Positions 7,935 through 19,657 of a DNA stretch of 64,000 nt are shown here, one piece after another. Origin of the DNA: Terracidiphilus sp. (GTDB lineage: Bacteria > Acidobacteriota > Terriglobia > Terriglobales > Acidobacteriaceae); assembly GCA_035549115.1 (NCBI GenBank), contig DASZRQ010000143.1:16641-80640 (forward strand). The letters are read 5' to 3'. Each line of letters starts with the position of its first letter. Within the stretch, counting starts at the first letter, position 1. The translations under genes and the position numbers were made by a program. The notes below the pieces were generated by a model that was not told the DNA's origin, ran no database searches, and saw only the letters and a list, made by a program, of their open reading frames with translations.

Positions 7935-9035
7935 ATGCAACGCACGAATCCAATTCGCAACTTCTCCTTCGCGCTGGCGCTGGTTTTCTTTGGCGTGGCG
8001 CTTTCTGCAGTGGCACAGGCTCCGTCCCGCTTTGTCGGCACGGTCGCCGCAATCAACGGCGACGAACTGACCGTCAAAACCGATGCGGGCGCCATGCAAC
8101 AGGTTATCGTTCCGTCGACCGCGGTGATGAAGCGCGTGGAACCCGGCCAGAAAGACCTGAGCGCCGCTGTCACCATTACGCTGGCCGATCTGAATACCGG
8201 CGACCGCGTGCTGGTGCGGCTCGATCCCAGCGCGCCCGCGGATGCCCCGCAGGCTGCGCAGATCATCACCATCAAGCAGGCCGACGTTGCCAGAAAGCAG
8301 CAGGAAGAACGCGAGGCCTGGCAGCGCACCGGCGTTGGCGGCCTGGTCAAGAGCGTGGACGCTTCGGCGGGCAGCATCGTCCTCACCACCGGCGCTGGGC
8401 CAACGGCGAAGACAGTCACCGTGCATGTCGATTCTTCGGCCATCCTCAAGCGGTACGCGCCGGGCTCCATCCGCTTCGATCTTGCACAGCCTGCGCCCAT
8501 CTCCGCGATTCAACCCGGCGATCAGTTGCGCGCGCGCGGAGCAAAGAACGCCGATGGAAGCCAGCTCGATGCCGTCGAAGTTGTCTCAGGCAGCTTTCGT
8601 AATCTCTCGGGCACCATTGTTGCCCTCGACTCGGCCAGCTCCAGCTTTACGATGAAGGACCTGCTGAGCAAGAAGCAGGTGACGGTGCGGGTCACTCCGG
8701 ATGCGCAGATGCATACGCTCCCGGAGATGATGGCGCGCATGCTTGCCGCGCGGCTCAAGGCGCCGGCCGCCGCTGAGCCTGCGGCCGCTGAACATATGCA
8801 CCGGCAAGGCGGCGACTTGCAACAGATGCTCAATCGCACTCCGGCCATCCAGTTTGCCGATCTCAAGAAGGGCGAGGCGGTCATGGTCGTGGCAACCGCC
8901 AGCCCGGACAACCTGACTGCGGTCACACTGCTGGCCGGCGTGGAGCCATTGCTTGAAGCGCCTGAAGCCAGCCGCGACCTGCTTTCCAACTGGAGCATGG
9001 GCTCCGGCGGTGCGGGCGAAGCAGAATCGCAGTAA
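7935..9035 (+). CDS. Secreted hypothetical protein with three DUF5666-like OB-fold repeats
   Basis: Signal peptide; three units of the type GTVAAINGDELTV...LNTGDRV / GLVKSVDASAGSIVL...IQPGDQL / GTIVALDSASSSFTM...LKKGEAV. Confidence 0.7.
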   Translation: MQRTNPIRNFSFALALVFFGVALSAVAQAPSRFVGTVAAINGDELTVKTDAGAMQQVIVPSTAVMKRVEPGQKDLSAAVTITLADLNTGDRVLVRLDPSAPADAPQAAQIITIKQADVARKQQEEREAWQRTGVGGLVKSVDASAGSIVLTTGAGPTAKTVTVHVDSSAILKRYAPGSIRFDLAQPAPISAIQPGDQLRARGAKNADGSQLDAVEVVSGSFRNLSGTIVALDSASSSFTMKDLLSKKQVTVRVTPDAQMHTLPEMMARMLAARLKAPAAAEPAAAEHMHRQGGDLQQMLNRTPAIQFADLKKGEAVMVVATASPDNLTAVTLLAGVEPLLEAPEASRDLLSNWSMGSGGAGEAESQ

Positions 9036-9063
9036 ATCATCTACCCATTGCGCACAACAGATT

Positions 9064-12000
9064 ATGAGAGGACACGTGTATCCACGATTGCATTGCTGGC
9101 TCCATTGTTTGATCGCCTTGACTTTGGTGATCGCGTCCACTGCGGCACGGGCGCAGTCTTCCCCATCCACGGCAACGGCTGAGCTCCATGGCCACGTCAC
9201 TGACCAGACCGGCGCGCTCATCCCCGGCGCGGAGGTGACAGTGACAAACGCCGCCGGAGCTGCTGCGGCCTCGGCAAAAGCCGACGCCAGCGGAGCATTT
9301 ACCGTGCGCGGCCTCGCTCCCGGCGGTTATATCGTCCACGTCGCATTCGCCGGCTTTGCGCCCTTCGATTCGCAACTGATTCAGGTGGCGCCGGGACAGG
9401 CCAAGCGCGTCGATGTCTCGATGGCGGTTGAAGCCGCGCAGCAGAACGTCGTCGTCACGGAGGATTCGCCGACTGTGAGCGTCGATGCGGGTAGCAACGC
9501 CAACTCCGTCGTCATCAAGGGCAAGGACCTTGACGCGCTCTCCGACGATCCCGACGAGCTCTCGAACGAGTTGCAGGCGCTGGCCGGGCCCTCCGCCGGT
9601 CCCAACGGCGGCCAGATTTACATCGACGGCTTTACTGGCGGCCAGCTTCCGCCCAAGTCCGCCATCCGCGAAATTCGCATCAACCAGAATCCCTTCTCCG
9701 CGGAGTTCGACAAGCTCGGCTACGGGCGCATCGAGATTCTCACCAAGCCGGGCACGGACAAGCTGCATGGCCAGTTCTTCGCCATGGGCAACGACAAGTC
9801 GTTCAACACCGGCAATCCCTTCACCGCCGATATCCCCGACTATGACAGCTACCAGTTCAACGGATCGCTGAGCGGATCGCTCTCCAAATGGGCCTCCTTC
9901 TTCGTGAGCGCACAGCAGCGCAACACCTCGGACGCCTATGTCTATACGGCGCGGCTCTCGGATACGGATGTGGAGAAAGGCGGCGTCTACAGCCCGCGCG
10001 TGCGTACCAATATTGCGCCGCGTCTCGATCTGCAGCTCGGCCAGCGCAATACCCTCACGCTGCGCTATCAGATGTGGCGCGACGGCGAGAGCGGCGTGCT
10101 GGGAGGCACCACCTCCCTGCCCTCGCAGGCCACCGGGTCCACGTCCTATGAGCACACCGTGCAGGCGAGCGATGCCTTCGTCATCAACGATCACATCGTG
10201 AACGAGACTCGCTTCCAATACATCCGCAACAGCGCGAACGATACTTCGGTCAGCTCCGCGCCACAGGTGTCCGTGCCCGGCTATTTTTCCAGCGGCGGCT
10301 CCAACAGCCAGTTTTCGAGCGATCATGAGGATCACTTCGAGCTGTGGAATGAAACCACAATGAGCGCCGGCGCGCATGCCATCAAATTCGGCACGCGCCT
10401 GCGCGATCTGCGTGTGGCCAACTCCACCAGCGCGAATTTCAATGGCTCTTTCAGCTTCACTTCGATCACAGCCTACAACGCAATGCTCGCGGCTCTCGCT
10501 GACGGCGAGACCTTCGCCGAGATCGCCGCGTCACCGGAGTGCACCTCGCCCGGAACAGCCGACCCCAGCGATCCCTGCGCACTGCCCAACCGCCTCACTT
10601 ACACCACTGGCCCGCTGGGCGCAAAAGCCAACGTCTTCGATGCGGCCCTGTTCTTCCAGGATGACTGGAAGGTGAGCCGGTTGCTCACGCTCTCCGGCGG
10701 CATCCGCTGGGAGTCGCAGAATCACGTCAGCGACCACAACGACTGGGCCCCGCGTGTTGCCTTCGCTTATGCGCTCGACGGCCACAAAAAAGGTACGCAG
10801 ACCAAAACCGTGTGGCGCGGCGGCTACGGCATCTTCTATGACCGCTTCTCGACAGAGAATCTGCTCTCCATCGCCCGTCAGAATGGCTCGGCAGATGCGC
10901 AGAATCAGACCGTCATCTCCAATCCCACATGCTTCGATGCAAACAGCCTGAGCAACATCGATCTTTCTTCATGTGGCACGCCCTCGTCCACTTCCACAAC
11001 CATCGTCCAGGTCTCACCCAGCTATCGTTCGCCTTATGCACAGCAGATCGGTACCAGCATCGAGCGCCAGGTGACCAAGACCATCACCAGCACGGTCACT
11101 TATCTGCGCTCCTTCGGCGTGCATCAGCTTGTCACGCGCGACGCCAACGCCTACCTGCCGGGCACGTACCAGTTTGGCAGCGACACGCTCACCGGCATCC
11201 GGCCCGATCCCTCGCTGGGACTCGTGAACCAGTTCTATCCCGAAGCGGTCTTCAAGCAGAACCAGGTCATCGTCAATCTGAATGCGCGCATCAGTCCCCG
11301 GCTCGGCATCTTCGGCTTCTATAACTGGACCCAGGCCAAATCCGACGGCGGCGCAGGCGGCGAGGTCTCGAACTCCTACAACCTGAGCCAGGATTATGGC
11401 CGCGCCTCCTTCGCCTCCACCAACATGGTTTTCCTCATGGCCAACTACACGGCTCCTTACGGCATCCGCGTCAACCCGTTTCTCATCGCGCAGTCCGGCA
11501 AGCCCTACAACATCACGACCAACAACGATCTGACCGGGGATAACTTCTTCAACAACCGCCCCGCTCTGGCAGATAGCTCTCTGTGCGATGGAGAGTCCAC
11601 ACAGTATGTGCCTACGCAGTTCGGGTGCCTTGATACAACTCCCGCCGATAATGCCACACCGATTGGCATCAATCTCGGTAACGGGCCTGCGGCGGTTGCG
11701 CTCAATCTGCGGCTGAGCCGCTCCTTCGGCATCGGCCCAAAGACGGAATCTGCCGCGCAGGGCGGATTCGGCGGCGGTCCGCATGGCGGCGGAGGTGGAC
11801 GCGGTGGCGGCGGCCACGGAGGTGGGTTAGGTCCCGGCGGACTAAACGGCGGTGGCGGTCCACCGCGCGGCATGTTCGGCGACCAGGGCCCCAGCCGCAA
11901 ATACAGCCTCACCTTCAGCGCGCAGGCTCTCAATCTCTTCAACAATATCGACTACGGCACGCCTTCTGGAGTTTTGGTGCCTACACCGGACGCGGATACT

Positions 12001-12120
12001 GGTGCGATAACGCCAGGCGATCGCTTCGGACACTCCTACAGCCTTGCCAAAGGGATATTTTCCTCGCCCACCAGCTCGGCCGCTCGTCGTATCTACTTCC
12101 AGGCCGAGTTCTCGTTCTAA
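9064..12120 (+). CDS. Outer-membrane beta-barrel protein with N-terminal carboxypeptidase-regulatory-like domain (TonB-dependent receptor-like)
   Basis: Signal peptide, LHGHVTDQTGALIPGAEVTV domain, FSAEFDKLGYGRIEI plug-like motif, alternating beta-strands, C-terminal Phe (QAEFSF). Start ATG 9064 or GTG 9076. Confidence 0.85.
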   Translation: MRGHVYPRLHCWLHCLIALTLVIASTAARAQSSPSTATAELHGHVTDQTGALIPGAEVTVTNAAGAAAASAKADASGAFTVRGLAPGGYIVHVAFAGFAPFDSQLIQVAPGQAKRVDVSMAVEAAQQNVVVTEDSPTVSVDAGSNANSVVIKGKDLDALSDDPDELSNELQALAGPSAGPNGGQIYIDGFTGGQLPPKSAIREIRINQNPFSAEFDKLGYGRIEILTKPGTDKLHGQFFAMGNDKSFNTGNPFTADIPDYDSYQFNGSLSGSLSKWASFFVSAQQRNTSDAYVYTARLSDTDVEKGGVYSPRVRTNIAPRLDLQLGQRNTLTLRYQMWRDGESGVLGGTTSLPSQATGSTSYEHTVQASDAFVINDHIVNETRFQYIRNSANDTSVSSAPQVSVPGYFSSGGSNSQFSSDHEDHFELWNETTMSAGAHAIKFGTRLRDLRVANSTSANFNGSFSFTSITAYNAMLAALADGETFAEIAASPECTSPGTADPSDPCALPNRLTYTTGPLGAKANVFDAALFFQDDWKVSRLLTLSGGIRWESQNHVSDHNDWAPRVAFAYALDGHKKGTQTKTVWRGGYGIFYDRFSTENLLSIARQNGSADAQNQTVISNPTCFDANSLSNIDLSSCGTPSSTSTTIVQVSPSYRSPYAQQIGTSIERQVTKTITSTVTYLRSFGVHQLVTRDANAYLPGTYQFGSDTLTGIRPDPSLGLVNQFYPEAVFKQNQVIVNLNARISPRLGIFGFYNWTQAKSDGGAGGEVSNSYNLSQDYGRASFASTNMVFLMANYTAPYGIRVNPFLIAQSGKPYNITTNNDLTGDNFFNNRPALADSSLCDGESTQYVPTQFGCLDTTPADNATPIGINLGNGPAAVALNLRLSRSFGIGPKTESAAQGGFGGGPHGGGGGRGGGGHGGGLGPGGLNGGGGPPRGMFGDQGPSRKYSLTFSAQALNLFNNIDYGTPSGVLVPTPDADTGAITPGDRFGHSYSLAKGIFSSPTSSAARRIYFQAEFSF

Positions 12121-14858: not shown

Positions 14859-15335
14859 TCAGTTTGCCTCCTTTGAGGCAAAGCGCCGCTTCAGCAGCGT
14901 ATCAACGGCAAAAAATCCCGGCCCGAGAATCAGAATCAGCAGCGCGGCAAACCAGTAGGTATAGGGCGTCGCATTGTAGAAGTCTTCCGGGTTCGAAAGA
15001 ATGTGCGAGAAGTTCACGCGATCGTCCGGCACGCTCAGGTAGGCCACCGTCATGTTCACAAACAGTACCAGCGAGGTGAACCGCGATGCGATGCCAAGCA
15101 GAAACAGGATGCCGCCAAAGAGTTCGACGCTTGCGCACATCAGCGCCGTCATATGAGGCATGGGCAGATTCAGAGACGTGAAATATTCGGTCACGCGGCC
15201 CAGATGCGTCAGCTTGCCCCAGCCGTCCTGCGCAAACTGCCAGCCCCAGTAGAGGCGAATGGCAAGCAGCAGCGGGCTCTGCAGCCGTGCCAGCAGCGCG
15301 GAGACGCGCGCATAGAGGCTCACAATCGTGTGCAT
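14859..15335 (-). CDS. DoxX family membrane protein (BufD/HvfX-like)
   Basis: LAIRLYWGWQFAQDGWGKL, SVELFGGILFLLGIASR, LILGPGFFAVD; last gene of the DUF692 operon. Confidence 0.9.
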   Translation of the reverse strand: MHTIVSLYARVSALLARLQSPLLLAIRLYWGWQFAQDGWGKLTHLGRVTEYFTSLNLPMPHMTALMCASVELFGGILFLLGIASRFTSLVLFVNMTVAYLSVPDDRVNFSHILSNPEDFYNATPYTYWFAALLILILGPGFFAVDTLLKRRFASKEAN

Positions 15336-15362
15336 GACGTTCCTTTCTTAAGGAAGAGATTG

Positions 15363-16274
15363 TTAATCGGCGATCAGCGGCTCAAGCTCGGGTGCGCAGA
15401 TCCATCCAAGCTCGGCCCAGCGCGCGAACCATGTCTGGATATGCTTCGGCCGCTGCTCCTGAGCCATGCGCGATGTGGCAAAGCCCGCCTCGAGCGCCTC
15501 GGCAAGCGGCAGTCCATCGCCGATCGCCGTCAGCGTCAGGAACTCCTCGCGCAGCAGCCGCAGATAGTAGACCGAGTCCTCCACGCGGTGCGCGGCAAGC
15601 CATGTGGCCCTCCGCCGCAGCTTGGGCAGTTTCGCCGGCGGCGTATCCGGGTCGTCGTCGGGAATGCTCGCCTCCGTCGTCTGCTTCTTCTCGCGCTTGT
15701 GCAGCTTCAGCACAAGATCGTCCGCGGGATACTCGAGCGGAATCAGCCGCAGGTGCGGCTGCAGGGCCAGCCGCGATCCGGCATCGAGCGTCGCAATCTG
15801 CTCCAGCGTCAGCGGCGGGCGTTCCGCGTTATCGAACGCCTCGATAAACGCCCACTCGATGCGTGCCACATCCACGGCCAGCCGGTGACGCCTTCCGGTG
15901 AACTCCGCATGCTGCGCGAGCCACGCCGGGAGGTGCGAGCCGAGATTGCGCAACGTGAACGAGCGGCTGGGGTGCGCCGTGAGGTACGCGACAGACAGCG
16001 CATGGAACACCCGCGCGCCGGCGACCGAACGAAGCGCGGGAAAATCCTCTGCCAGGGCATGCAGCACCCGGAACCAGTACTGCCGGTTATAGAGCTCCAG
16101 CCGCTCGAAAGCAGTGAGCCTGCTGTTAGGCGCAATGAACGACTCCGCCACCGAACGCATTGCCCGTCCGTCGTTGCTGACGGTCTGCATCTCCTCGTCT
16201 TCCGTCAGCGGCTGCATCACCGCGGCGGCCATGGTGCGCTGCAGCTCGGCCAGGGTCATGGCAGGCGCGGTCAT
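15363..16274 (-). CDS. DUF2063 MNIO partner protein (BufC/HvfC-like)
   Basis: RLELYNRQYWFRVLHALAEDFPALR...YLTAHPSRSFTLRNLG...DVARIEWA; ATGA-coupled to the DUF692 gene. Confidence 0.88.
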   Translation of the reverse strand: MTAPAMTLAELQRTMAAAVMQPLTEDEEMQTVSNDGRAMRSVAESFIAPNSRLTAFERLELYNRQYWFRVLHALAEDFPALRSVAGARVFHALSVAYLTAHPSRSFTLRNLGSHLPAWLAQHAEFTGRRHRLAVDVARIEWAFIEAFDNAERPPLTLEQIATLDAGSRLALQPHLRLIPLEYPADDLVLKLHKREKKQTTEASIPDDDPDTPPAKLPKLRRRATWLAAHRVEDSVYYLRLLREEFLTLTAIGDGLPLAEALEAGFATSRMAQEQRPKHIQTWFARWAELGWICAPELEPLIAD

Positions 16275-17131
16275 TGCGCAGCCTCCGCAAGCTGTCCAGC
16301 ATGCTTGTGCAGGTAGCGCTCGGCCTTCTTCGCTTCCGCATGCACCTCGTCGAAGCTAGGAATGTGATCGTCCCACTCCAGCAGCGTCGGCGTAGCTCCG
16401 CAGCGCTCGATGGCGCGCGCATAAAGCTGCCACACCGGGTCGATCACCGGATGATCGTGCGTATCGAGAATGTACTTTTCATACCGCGAGTGCCCGGCGA
16501 TGTGAATCTGCGCCACGCGGTGCGCCGGAATCGCGTTGACGTACTCTATCGGCTCGAACTCGTGATTCACCGACGAGACATAGATGTTGTTCACATCCAG
16601 CAGAATCCCGCAGTCGGCCCGCTCCACCACTTCGTTCAGGAACTCCCACTCCGTCATCTGCGAATCGGTGAACTCCGCATACGAGCTCACGTTCTCCACC
16701 GCCACGGGAATCTCCAGGAAGTCCTGCACCATGCGCACGCGCTCGGCGGTGCGCTCCACGGCCTCCCAGGTATAGGGCAGCGGCAGCAGGTCATGGGTAT
16801 AGGTTCCATCCACGCTGCCCCAGCACAGGTGGTCGCTCAGCCACGGTGTGCCCGTGCGGCGCACAAGCTGCTTCAGCCGGCGCAGGTGCTCGGGGTCCGG
16901 CGCGGTCGCCGAGCCAAAGTACATCGACACCCCATGCTGCACCACGCGGTAGCGTTCGAGAATCTGGTCGAGCACCGCCAGCGGGCGTCCCGCATCGACC
17001 ATGAAATTCTCGGAGATGATCTCGAACCAGTCGACTACCGGCTTGCGCGAAAAGATGTGCTGGTAATGCGGAATGCGCAGACCGATGCCGATGCCGTGAT
17101 CCTGATGCGCGTTGAATCGATTGCCGGGCAT
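16271..17131 (-). CDS. DUF692 multinuclear non-heme iron oxidative enzyme (MNIO; BufB/HvfB-like)
   Basis: GIGLRIPH, WFEIISENF, HGVSMYFGS, WLSDHLCW, DLLPLP, VENVSSY, LLDVNNIYVS, QIHIAGH, DTHD, LLEWD. Confidence 0.96.
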   Translation of the reverse strand: MPGNRFNAHQDHGIGIGLRIPHYQHIFSRKPVVDWFEIISENFMVDAGRPLAVLDQILERYRVVQHGVSMYFGSATAPDPEHLRRLKQLVRRTGTPWLSDHLCWGSVDGTYTHDLLPLPYTWEAVERTAERVRMVQDFLEIPVAVENVSSYAEFTDSQMTEWEFLNEVVERADCGILLDVNNIYVSSVNHEFEPIEYVNAIPAHRVAQIHIAGHSRYEKYILDTHDHPVIDPVWQLYARAIERCGATPTLLEWDDHIPSFDEVHAEAKKAERYLHKHAGQLAEAAQ

Positions 17132-17165
17132 AGAGGAAACCAGGGGCGATTGAATCGGGAGGAGG

Positions 17166-17205
17166 AGAGGAGGGCCAGCTTACGCAGCAGCGCTGGCCCT
17201 CCCCT
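17166..17205 (-). promoter_or_regulatory. Intercistronic stem-loop between precursor and MNIO genes
   Basis: GAGGGCCAGC (17170-17179) / GCTGGCCCTC (17192-17201) perfect 10 bp, extendable to 14 bp with one G-U pair in the minus-strand RNA. Confidence 0.7.
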
Positions 17206-17220
17206 GGAACCAGATTGGAG

Positions 17221-17520
17221 TTAGGCGAACTTCGGCATGTGAGAGCCGTCGGTGGCGCAGCCGCCCTTGCCCTTGCAGCTATTCTTGCCCTTGCAGCCGT
17301 TGTCGCTGGACTTGCAGCCGCCCTGGCCCTTGCAATCGTTCTTGCCCTTGCAGGAGTGCTTGGCGGGTTTGTCGGCGCCGGTGTAGCGCAGGCCGGCCTT
17401 GGCCACCTTGGCCGAGGTGCCTTGCGCCGTCGTCGCCGGCGTTGCAGCAGCCGCAACAGTTCCGCCCATCAAACCGGAGAGAGCAGCGGTGAGCAACATC
17501 GCGTTCAGTTGGTTCTTCAT
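17221..17520 (-). CDS. Secreted Cys-rich RiPP precursor, bufferin-like (99 aa)
   Basis: ATG 17520 with GAGGT SD; Sec-type signal MKNQLNAMLLTAALSGLMGGTVAAAA; core CKGKNDCKGQGGCKSSDNGCKGKNSCKGKGGC; directly upstream of DUF692-DUF2063-DoxX. Confidence 0.9.
   Translation of the reverse strand: MKNQLNAMLLTAALSGLMGGTVAAAATPATTAQGTSAKVAKAGLRYTGADKPAKHSCKGKNDCKGQGGCKSSDNGCKGKNSCKGKGGCATDGSHMPKFA
17257..17352 (-). repeat. Two 39-nt coding repeats with 57-nt period in the precursor core
   Basis: 17257-17295 vs 17314-17352 are identical at 34 of 39 positions by hand comparison; both encode CKGKNxCKGxGGC. Confidence 0.95.
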
Positions 17521-17620: not shown

Positions 17621-17647
17621 GATTGGGCGCATGCGCGAAAGGTTACA
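17621..17647 (-). promoter_or_regulatory. Candidate ECF-sigma promoter of the precursor operon
   Basis: Minus strand TGTAACC-N16-AATC about 100 nt upstream of the precursor ATG. GTAACC matches the -35 of SigF/ECF16-type promoters; the -10 is non-canonical. Confidence 0.4.
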
Positions 17648-17775: not shown

Positions 17776-18243
17776 ATGGACGTCCCGATGGAGGTTCTTA
17801 GTTTGGACTCGAAGAAATGGACCACGGTGAGTTGGGCCAGCATGCTCATCGCGCTTGCACAGAATCTCTGTACGGCCGTTCTGACCATCAGCGGCATCCG
17901 TGTCGCCATCGGCCTTTCCGCGCTGGCGGCTGCCGGCGGCACCTATGCACCGGCGCGCGGCTTTCATCAGGATGCCATCCGCATTCCTATGCTGATCATC
18001 GCCGCTGCGGGCGCGATCATCAATCTCGCCGTGCTCTTCTGGATCTGGCATCTGCGCTCGAGGCCCTCGGCGCAGTGGCGCAAGCGCGAGTTGAGCGCGA
18101 AGGAAAAGCGCTCCGAGCGGCTTCAGGTGGTGCTCGCCATCGTCACGCTGATTCTCGTCGGCCTTGAGACCTGGACGCATCCCATGGTGCATCGCAAGCC
18201 TCCTGTGCCGCTCCATGCGGTCACGCACTCCAGCGCGACTTAG
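17776..18243 (+). CDS. Hypothetical 3-TM membrane protein
   Basis: Three hydrophobic segments, a Cys in the first (QNLCTAV), several His; GC3-rich codon usage; converges on the anti-sigma gene. Confidence 0.75.
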   Translation: MDVPMEVLSLDSKKWTTVSWASMLIALAQNLCTAVLTISGIRVAIGLSALAAAGGTYAPARGFHQDAIRIPMLIIAAAGAIINLAVLFWIWHLRSRPSAQWRKRELSAKEKRSERLQVVLAIVTLILVGLETWTHPMVHRKPPVPLHAVTHSSAT

Positions 18244-18515
18244 CCCGCGCCGTCCTCGCGAGCACTGCCGGGGCCGCTTCCCTCTTCGATCTCTTTGTCG
18301 ATGCGTGCATGCAGCCGCTCGCTGTATCCGGCGGGCAGTTCGAAGACGCGCTCGTCTGCGACCAGGATTACCACGTTGCGCGTCGAGTCCAGCACCGCCG
18401 AGCAGATTTCGCAGGTCTCCAGGTGCTTGTCGATTTCGGCGCGCAGCACCGGGTCCACCTCGCCCTCGATATAGGCCGAGATGTACTCCCACACGTGTTT
18501 GCAGTCGATCCTCAT
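18240..18515 (-). CDS. Zinc-binding anti-sigma factor (zf-HC2/ZAS)
   Basis: CKHVWEYISAYIEGE...HLETCEIC (HxxxCxxC); ATGA-coupled to the upstream ECF sigma gene. Confidence 0.92.
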   Translation of the reverse strand: MRIDCKHVWEYISAYIEGEVDPVLRAEIDKHLETCEICSAVLDSTRNVVILVADERVFELPAGYSERLHARIDKEIEEGSGPGSAREDGAG

Positions 18516-19141
18516 GCGCGCCCTCCGAACCAGCCTTTGCGCTTGGGCGCAAACGCTTTCAGTTGCGGAGCCAGCTCCCGTTGCAGCATCGCGCGAGCAC
18601 GGTGCAGCCGCACCTTGACAGCCCCTTCGCTGATGCCCAGGGCGCCCGCCGTCTCGCGGATATCCAACTCTTCGATGTCTCTGAGAAGAACAATGTTACG
18701 GTAAATCTCCGGCAGCTTCTCGATCGCCTGCCGCAGCAGAGCCGCAAGCTCCTTCTGCTCCAGCGCCGCCGAGGGCACCTCGCGCCAGCTCATCAGGATC
18801 GCGGGCGTGTAGTCTCCGGTCTGCTCGTCGGTCTCCGCGTCCAGAGAGTCTTCGCGCCGCGAGGCCGTCTTGCGCAACCGTCCCAGCCCTTCGTTGCGTG
18901 CGATGGAGAGTACCCAGGTCCGGAACTGCGCATCGCCGCGAAAGAGATGCAGGTTGCGATAGACCTTGATGACCGTTTCCTGCGCCGCATCCTCCGCCTC
19001 AGTTTCGTTGCGCAAAATCGAGTAGAGGAGCAGATAGATCGGCCGCTCGCAGGGAGCAATCAATGGATGAAAGAGATGCTTCTCCCCCGCAAGGATTCTG
19101 CGGATACAGTCGGCTTCGTATTGGGGAGAGGGATTCGTCAT
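18512..19141 (-). CDS. ECF RNA polymerase sigma factor
   Basis: EAEDAAQETVIKVYRNLHLFRGDAQFRTWVLSIARN (region 2); LPEIYRNIVLLRDIEELDIRETAGALGISEGAVKVRLHRAR (region 4). Start re-picked at ATG 19141. Confidence 0.95.
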   Translation of the reverse strand: MTNPSPQYEADCIRRILAGEKHLFHPLIAPCERPIYLLLYSILRNETEAEDAAQETVIKVYRNLHLFRGDAQFRTWVLSIARNEGLGRLRKTASRREDSLDAETDEQTGDYTPAILMSWREVPSAALEQKELAALLRQAIEKLPEIYRNIVLLRDIEELDIRETAGALGISEGAVKVRLHRARAMLQRELAPQLKAFAPKRKGWFGGRA

Positions 19142-19327
19142 CGATGGCGCGCGCTGCCTCGCTGGACTGCGGCAATGCCCTTCGCCACTATAACTTGCCA
19201 TGCGGCGCTTTACGGTAACTTGGCCAGTCTCAGAAAAACCCGCTCCGGCAAAACTTTGCCCGGCGTCATGGATTCCTTATATCGAAAATGTCCAATGGGC
19301 TGTACAATCACATCCACGAGGAAACCC

Positions 19328-19657
19328 ATGGCGGGAGATATTCAACTTACTTGCAGCGATTGCGGGCAGGACTTCACCTTCACGGCTGCCGATCAGGCGT
19401 TCTTCCAGGAACGCGGTTATTCGACTCCGAAACGCTGCAAGCCATGCCGTATGGCAAAGAAAGCCGATCAGGGGGGCTCCGGTTATCGTTCTGCTCCTGC
19501 GCAAGGGACGCCTGTGATCTGCTCCAACTGCGGACAGCCGACAACGGTTCCATTTGAACCGCGCGGCGACCGCCCGGTATATTGCCGCGACTGCTACCAG
19601 GCACGCAAAGGCAGCGGTGGTGGCGGCGGCCGGGCGCGCGGCGGCGGGCACTACTAA
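19328..19657 (+). CDS. Double zinc-ribbon protein (zf-trcl-like plus CxxC-x17-CxxC) with Gly/Arg-rich tail
   Basis: GAGG SD before ATG 19328; CSDC...F.FT..DQAFF..RGY..PKRCKPC and CSNC-x17-CRDC; only the last 109 aa of track ORF 18164-19657. Confidence 0.88.
   Translation: MAGDIQLTCSDCGQDFTFTAADQAFFQERGYSTPKRCKPCRMAKKADQGGSGYRSAPAQGTPVICSNCGQPTTVPFEPRGDRPVYCRDCYQARKGSGGGGGRARGGGHY

Follow-up and report, generated by a model that had tools for sequence, protein, structure and literature searches.

Does a six-Cys precursor encoded beside an MNIO maturase in an acidobacterium represent a new type of bufferin, or an ordinary member of a family that has already been described? The question is raised by four genes in the genome of Terracidiphilus sp. 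(Acidobacteriaceae; 3.66 Mb), which lie within a 64,000-nt stretch that was analyzed as a whole and that we call the window. An earlier note on this DNA had read the genes as a cluster for a ribosomally made peptide with post-translational modifications (RiPP) of the bufferin type, and had taken the precursor to be atypical and a candidate for a new type. With high confidence we assign the locus to the bufABCD operons of Buf2 type (Buf_6/12Cys, "Cys-Lys captophorin"); a mechanism is proposed here from homology, and a mode of regulation from synteny and motif. Its novelty is modest and is confined to a module of an extracytoplasmic function (ECF) sigma factor, a zinc anti-sigma factor and a protein with four transmembrane segments (4-TM protein), together with the module's promoter.

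The four genes form a conserved bufABCD operon

All four genes lie on the minus strand, in the order precursor, MNIO, DUF2063 and DoxX. The bufA2-type precursor gene (17221..17520) encodes 99 amino acids, with a Sec-type signal as read by eye and the core HSCKGKNDCKGQGGCKSSDNGCKGKNSCKGKGGC. It is followed by bufB (16271..17131), which encodes an MNIO (DUF692) maturase recognized by NCBIfam model NF050167 as well as by Pfam, by bufC (15363..16274), which encodes a DUF2063 partner of the PME1 type, and by bufD (14859..15335), which encodes a DoxX-family membrane protein (Pfam DoxX, 69.9 bits). Read directly from the sequence, the start of bufC overlaps the stop of bufB as ATGA. The description in the earlier note of four co-directional minus-strand genes with ATGA coupling was thus borne out in every detail by the sequence, Pfam and NCBIfam.

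Synteny and residue conservation were counted over 80 related loci, unless another number is given. The order bufA-bufB-bufC-bufD was kept in 77-80 of these loci, the precursor gene adjoined the genes for the MNIO and its DUF2063 partner in 79-80, and a DoxX gene followed bufC in 77. A gene order shared this widely is not due to chance. Furthermore, BufB passed the curated cut-off of the NCBIfam MNIO_BufB model NF050167 (356 bits; cut-off 310). Together with gene content and order, this score upholds the assignment of the locus to the bufferin-type MNIO RiPP clusters with bufABCD architecture.

The precursor belongs to the Buf2 family

The precursor, read from an internal ATG at 17520 to 17221 and preceded by a GAGG ribosome-binding site 7 nt upstream of its start, has the sequence MKNQLNAMLLTAALSGLMGGTVAAAATPATTAQGTSAKVAKAGLRYTGADKPAKHSCKGKNDCKGQGGCKSSDNGCKGKNSCKGKGGCATDGSHMPKFA. 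By eye, its N-terminus (MKNQ, with an N-terminal Lys, a hydrophobic stretch of about 20 amino acids and an AAA site) resembles a Sec-type signal. Six Cys are found at residues 57, 63, 69, 76, 82 and 88, with the spacing C-x5-C-x5-C-x6-C-x5-C-x5-C. Six conserved Cys are the defining trait of the Buf2, or Buf_6/12Cys, family (PMC11626156, PMC12452194), whose founding member is BufA2 of Caulobacter (PMC11626156). A 2025 survey found six conserved Cys in 90% of Buf2 precursors and twelve, as duplicated domains, in the remainder (PMC12452194), and a 2026 paper from the Mitchell laboratory named the group "Cys-Lys" captophorins and cited HNDCK and NACKG among its frequent motifs (PMC13097082).

Candidatus Koribacter versatilis encodes a protein, WP_011521333.1, that has 63% overall identity to the precursor; between the His preceding Cys I and the MP at the C-terminus, the two agree in 38 of 41 residues. 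This protein is listed as Buf2 (Buf_6-12Cys) in Table S2 of the survey, where the next three accessions are an MNIO, a DUF2063 protein and a DoxX protein (PMC12452194). It was identified by matching homologues from complete genomes of the same family by exact sequence to RefSeq accessions, which also yielded Acidobacterium capsulatum WP_015897739.1 and Silvibacterium dinghuense WP_129206357.1. Thus, the six-Cys trait, the close identity to a listed member and the adjacency of MNIO and DUF2063 genes all place the precursor in Buf2. Judged from its sequence, it is an ordinary member of that family and the claim of a new type is unsupported, as six Cys define Buf2 and a member with a near-identical core had already been catalogued.

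Against the NCBIfam BufA2 model NF050166 the precursor gave a match (E = 6e-9, profile positions 5-64 of 79), although its score of 36 bits was below the curated cut-off of 60 bits; the comparison with this model that the earlier note had proposed was therefore positive by E-value and short of the equivalog threshold. All 117 relatives scanned, 83 single-domain and 34 multi-domain, matched the model. Bit scores for these relatives were scaled from a 59.2-bit match at E = 3.5e-16; by this scaling the best E-value among the single-domain relatives, 1e-13, lies below the cut-off, and the best among the two-domain relatives, 2e-21, should surpass 60 bits. By the alignment coordinates, no net insertion or deletion separates the Cys region from the BufA2 profile, and the missing score therefore seems to be due to the leader and to the tail at the C-terminus. 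At its curated cut-off the NCBI model misses the whole single-domain acidobacterial clade (n = 83), which looks like an annotation gap. RefSeq calls the homologues of Koribacter, A. capsulatum and Silvibacterium hypothetical, lipoprotein or low-complexity protein. A profile search of whole genomes with NF050166 missed the Caulobacter control and thus seems insensitive for so tiny a gene, and its negatives were not used. The outcome that the earlier note had said would remove the novelty, an ordinary member of the BufA2 subfamily, is largely what was found, with the caveats that the precursor scored 36 against 60 bits and that Caulobacter Buf2 is the only one studied.

The symmetry of the core is real. 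The sequence contains an internal tandem duplication (17257..17370, minus strand) of two 57-nt units, 75% identical, each with one three-Cys cassette and encoding CKGKNDCKGQGGC and CKGKNSCKGKGGC, respectively. In an alignment of 83 single-domain representatives (50% identity) of the relatives of the window precursor, the twin CKGxNxCKGxGGC cassette was present in every sequence. All six Cys and G59, N61, G67, N80, K83, G84, G86 and G87 were invariant, and A12, A13, G16 and G20 were conserved in the signal region. Since both cassettes occur in all 83 representatives, the duplication is ancient, family-wide and not peculiar to the window locus, and the symmetrical build stressed in the earlier note is genuine without being distinctive. 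The relatives as a whole formed 5,405 clusters at 90% identity and 1,343 representatives at 50% identity; among the matches listed from the latter set, 100 of 150 relatives had six Cys and many others 12-13, and 12-Cys tandem forms are present among the homologues. A tblastn search of the precursor against plasmids gave no match. Two genomes of the family (G046 and G106) carried two precursor copies at separate loci, and one of the two copies in G046 had an in-frame TAA.

A Cys-Lys-type MNIO and its DUF2063 partner

BufB also matched Pfam MbnB_TglH_ChrH with 365 bits, and it aligned to the Histophilus somni MNIO of known structure (PDB 3BWW) with E = 3e-47, its LLEWDD segment facing LLERDF. 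The residue that follows the catalytic Asp is Phe in MNIOs acting on Lys-Cys (EGKCG) precursors and Asp in those acting on Cys-Lys precursors, and it has been modelled as touching the substrate Lys (PMC13097082). BufB carries the Cys-Lys signature, D254-D255, which was conserved in 75 of 76 related loci. H66, H101, E146, D179, N182, H210, D223, H225 and E252 are likewise present and were conserved in at least 76 of the 80 loci; we take these nine positions, picked after the iron ligands of MbnB rather than mapped on a structure, to be candidate metal ligands. The MNIO at this locus is the only one in the whole genome.

BufC matched Pfam DUF2063 with 58.8 bits (cut-off 27.2). At the sequence level it had no match in the PDB. 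Its AlphaFold2 model (predicted local distance difference test score, pLDDT, 89.9) had as best structural match TglI (8HCI_A / 8HI7_A; probability 1.00), the partner subunit of the MNIO TglH, and its C-terminal part gave weak structural matches to proteins of the RiPP recognition element (RRE) type (TbiB1, ThcOx). BufC accordingly has the pattern of a PME1 / DUF2063 partner, an N-terminal DUF2063 followed by an RRE-like C-terminal domain.

Three other precursor types were tried and rejected. The earlier note was right that the core is neither of the EGKCG-repeat nor of the four-Cys DUF2282 type. EGKCG is absent from the sequence, in which Lys stands after each Cys and not before, which rejects the EGKCG/oxazolin (HvfA) type; the precursor had no Pfam match, DUF2282 included, at E <= 0.01, which rejects Buf1. 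The methanobactin type was rejected by the MbnB model (41 bits; cut-off 325).

Relation to known systems

The closest known systems are the catalogued acidobacterial Buf2 clusters of Koribacter versatilis (WP_011521333-336) and Terriglobus saanensis (WP_041586049; Table S2, PMC12452194), both, like the window locus, known from sequence. These clusters share with the window the order Buf2 precursor, MNIO, DUF2063 and DoxX. The Koribacter cluster has the ECF sigma/anti-sigma/4-TM trio nearby, but its sigma/anti-sigma pair is divergent from bufA whereas that of the window is co-directional. Bufferin 2 of Caulobacter vibrioides (buf2ABC; BufA2 = CCNA_03001; PMC11626156) resembles the window operon in its six-Cys precursor (Sec-exported in Caulobacter, with a Sec-type signal read by eye in the window), MNIO and DUF2063 partner, in the large MNIO sequence cluster to which its maturase belongs, in the Cys-Lys motif type and in an ECF-type promoter (a candidate in the window) with a GTAACC -35 element. 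It differs in having no DoxX gene and in its regulators: Caulobacter buf1 and buf2 are both under SigF, and SigF and the six-TM anti-sigma factor NrsF are encoded elsewhere in the genome than buf2, whereas genes for a soluble anti-sigma factor of the zinc-binding (ZAS) type and a 4-TM protein lie beside the window operon.

The four-gene architecture including DoxX is shared with Caulobacter Buf1 (bufABCD), a system with 5-thiooxazole chemistry that buffers periplasmic copper; its precursor is a four-Cys DUF2282 protein, while the window peptide has no DUF2282 match. The oxazolin, fontiphorin and gonophorin systems (HvfA, FonA; EGKCG, "Lys-Cys" captophorins) likewise have an MNIO, a DUF2063 partner and often DoxX, and their Cys are converted to 5-thiooxazoles in copper-binding products. 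However, their precursors carry EGKCG repeats with Lys before Cys and their MNIO reads ERDF (3BWW) where the window BufB reads EWDD. The window proteins were all below the cut-offs of the HvfB, HvfC and HvfX models, with BufC at 27 bits against the HvfC equivalog (cut-off 142) and the DoxX protein at 59.9 bits against the HvfX family (cut-off 80). Methanobactin MbnABC resembles the window system in that an MNIO-family enzyme modifies Cys of a copper-binding RiPP, but it employs MbnC rather than a DUF2063 partner and yields a leader-cleaved, secreted chalkophore with oxazolone-thioamides.

A proposed route to the mature product

In the characterized relatives, enzymes of the BufB/BufC type convert Cys to 5-thiooxazoles with O2 and a multi-iron site (PMC11626156, PMC13097082). 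By analogy with Caulobacter Buf1 and Buf2 and with fontiphorin, BufB in complex with its DUF2063/RRE partner BufC would oxidize Cys of the precursor to 5-thiooxazoles in the cytoplasm. In Caulobacter Buf2 the mass of each of the four central Cys drops by 4 Da, and a disulfide links Cys I with Cys VI (PMC11626156); the most likely targets in the window precursor would be the four central Cys, C63, C69, C76 and C82, and the outer pair, C57 and C88, would be joined by a disulfide. The Caulobacter product is exported by Sec and buffers periplasmic copper (PMC11626156). On this model, the window precursor, once modified, would then be directed by its Sec signal peptide into the periplasm as a small protein that sequesters excess copper there. 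DoxX, which is not needed for modification in Buf1 (PMC11626156), would be an accessory protein, probably dispensable for this step.

A candidate regulatory module adjoins the operon

Upstream of the operon lies the gene for an ECF sigma factor, the probable regulator (18512..19201, minus strand; Pfam Sigma70_r2 and r4_2). ATGA-coupled to it is a gene for a soluble zinc anti-sigma factor of 91 amino acids (18240..18515, minus strand; Pfam zf-HC2, 48.7 bits; HxxxCxxC motif), and tail-to-tail with the latter is a gene for a predicted 4-TM protein of 155 amino acids without a Pfam match (17776..18243, plus strand). In the anti-sigma factor C5, H7 and the motif H31-x3-C35-x2-C38 were conserved in 52 sequences, and the protein has no membrane segment. 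It showed a weak likeness to RsrA, scoring 33 bits, below the cut-off, against that model. A Cys in TM1 and an F-H-x-D-x-x-R-x-P loop are conserved in the 4-TM protein, whose C-terminus is rich in His, and the protein could be a membrane sensor or an anchor for the soluble anti-sigma factor.

The ECF sigma gene adjoined the buf operon in 51 loci, the 4-TM protein was conserved in 52, and the whole trio accompanied the operon in about 50. Three arrangements were found: the sigma pair lies upstream and co-directional (window), divergent from bufA (Koribacter), or after bufD, as in A. capsulatum and Silvibacterium, where it follows on the same strand. The 4-TM gene was tail-to-tail with the anti-sigma gene in the window, Koribacter, A. 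capsulatum and Silvibacterium, and the two stop codons overlapped in every arrangement examined. A linkage of trio and operon that has outlasted three rearrangements speaks for a functional tie. In a survey of the family (151 genomes sampled, 142 genera), 22 genomes had both the 4-TM protein and bufA, 16 bufA only, 12 the 4-TM protein only and 101 neither (Fisher p = 1.6e-8, phylogeny ignored); the tie is not obligate.

A single strongly conserved block, TGTAACCTTT-N13-ACTC, was found in 39 aligned regions upstream of bufA. In the window it corresponds to an ECF-type promoter candidate, TGTAACC-N16-AATC (17621..17647, minus strand), which precedes the precursor ATG by about 100 nt, and this motif occurs once in the genome. 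The bufA genes of Koribacter, A. capsulatum and Silvibacterium are also preceded by TGTAAC(C/T)-N16-17-(C/G)TC. Furthermore, the -35 element of the window candidate matches that of the Caulobacter SigF site, GTAACC-N16-CGAA (PMC3511200). From these sequence features, transcription of the operon probably starts at the conserved TGTAACC-N16-AATC element, and the adjacent ECF sigma factor would probably drive it while the soluble HxxxCxxC zinc-finger anti-sigma factor restrains the sigma factor. A motif search of the genome did not find the exact promoter motif again upstream of the sigma gene, and autoregulation is therefore unsupported. We see about an even chance that a dedicated module of ECF sigma factor, RsrA-like zinc anti-sigma factor and 4-TM protein controls acidobacterial Buf2 through TGTAACC-N16, replacing SigF/NrsF. 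An arrangement of sigma and anti-sigma genes at Buf2 operons of acidobacteria seems not to have been described before.

Between the precursor and MNIO genes lies a GC-rich hairpin of 14 bp without a U-tract (17166..17205, minus strand; minimum free energy -35.3 kcal/mol, z = -2.4). A strong hairpin was found in the bufA-bufB gap of 77 loci despite sequence divergence (median -27.4 kcal/mol; median z = -2.9 against mononucleotide shuffles). It is probably a partial terminator or transcript stabilizer which, by analogy with other RiPP operons, would raise the ratio of precursor to enzyme transcript from its position 3' of the precursor gene.

Divergent from the ECF sigma gene is a small-protein gene (19340-19657, plus strand) whose product has a zinc-ribbon domain of the form CxxC-x17-CxxC (TIGR04272, 65 bits). 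It lay less than 600 nt from the sigma gene in 42 of 54 sigma-bearing loci, with 74-94% identity (loci L002-L076), and it stays with the sigma gene even where the latter is displaced from the buf operon; the zinc-ribbon gene may therefore belong to the same regulatory unit.

Weighing the Buf2 reading and its alternatives

What is shown here is the identity of the genes, the family membership, and the conservation of catalytic and substrate-matching residues, of the operon, of the promoter block and of the hairpin. Several points nevertheless weigh against the fuller reading of the locus as a Buf2 operon with the chemistry and control proposed above. The precursor falls under the NCBI BufA2 equivalog cut-off (36 versus 60 bits), and its AlphaFold2 model, built with 83 homologues, is uninformative (pLDDT 56, unusable; helix predicted at residues 5-18). 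For BufA2 of Caulobacter, Cys I is placed at position 24 of the core and Cys VI at position 50 (PMC11626156); by these quoted positions they span 27 residues compared with 32 in the window precursor, and the spacing may differ. Biochemical data on Buf2 are limited to the Caulobacter peptide, the acidobacterial homologues being known from sequence, and copper is assumed to be the relevant metal. On the side of regulation, the -10 element of the window, AATC, deviates from the clade consensus ACTC. In addition, the survey reports sigma and anti-sigma genes in Buf1 but not in Buf2 clusters (PMC12452194), and the regulatory link is therefore one that we infer from synteny and the promoter motif only.

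The same machinery might yield another product or serve another role than in Caulobacter, with all six Cys or another subset modified, or with protection against another thiophilic metal or against thiol or oxidative stress as its function. The ZAS motif of the anti-sigma factor and its 33-bit likeness to RsrA would fit such a role, as would the ties of DoxX homologues to oxidative or sulphur stress (PMC12452194); the clade lies under the BufA2 equivalog cut-off, and the chemistry of Buf2 itself is based on mass and ultraviolet data only. We nonetheless consider this unlikely, given that 5-thiooxazole formation and copper binding are common to all characterized MNIO-DUF2063 systems (PMC13097082), that BufB passes the bufferin maturase model, and that the core is near-identical across the clade with a Cys spacing that fits the BufA2 profile without net indels. 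Still less probable, to the point of being hardly credible, is that the peptide is an unmodified periplasmic metallothionein-like or low-complexity Cys/Lys/Gly-rich protein beside which the MNIO lies by accident. The database names of its homologues ("low-complexity protein", "hypothetical protein") suggest as much, and according to the survey the genes of many Buf precursors lie apart from any MNIO (PMC12452194). Here, however, the precursor adjoins MNIO-DUF2063 in 80 of 80 loci, the single MNIO of the genome sits at this locus, and its Asp-Asp substrate-matching signature fits a Cys-Lys substrate. A Buf2 operon thus remains the reading that we prefer.

Distribution and significance

Relatives of the precursor were found in at least 495 species-level genomes, and the best 80 of these came almost all from Acidobacteriaceae or from metagenome-assembled genomes of Terracidiphilus. 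In the family survey, 38 of the 151 genomes had a relative, spread over 36 of the 142 genera, or about a quarter.

Elsewhere in the window, a two-gene unit was observed on the plus strand (7935-12120), of which the first gene was CusF/DUF5666-like in an initial reading of the sequence and the second encodes a 1055-amino-acid outer-membrane barrel (CarboxypepD_reg and OMP_b-brl_4). In 38 loci, tblastn matches to the barrel, possibly paralogues, were found downstream of bufD at a distance of a few kb.

With this locus, a very large and already catalogued family of RiPPs that buffer periplasmic copper gains one uncharacterized member. The value of the locus lies mainly in ecology, in that the operon is present in about a quarter of the genera in this soil Acidobacteriota family, acidobacterial bufferins being as yet unstudied; the gap in the BufA2 model leaves single-domain acidobacterial precursors annotated as "hypothetical" or "low-complexity". 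The sigma/zinc anti-sigma/4-TM module and its promoter offer a testable circuit distinct from the SigF/NrsF paradigm of Caulobacter. If the module controls the operon as proposed, it would contradict the survey's statement that Buf2 clusters are without sigma and anti-sigma genes, and it would tie the making of bufferin to a switch that senses thiols or metal in the cytoplasm.

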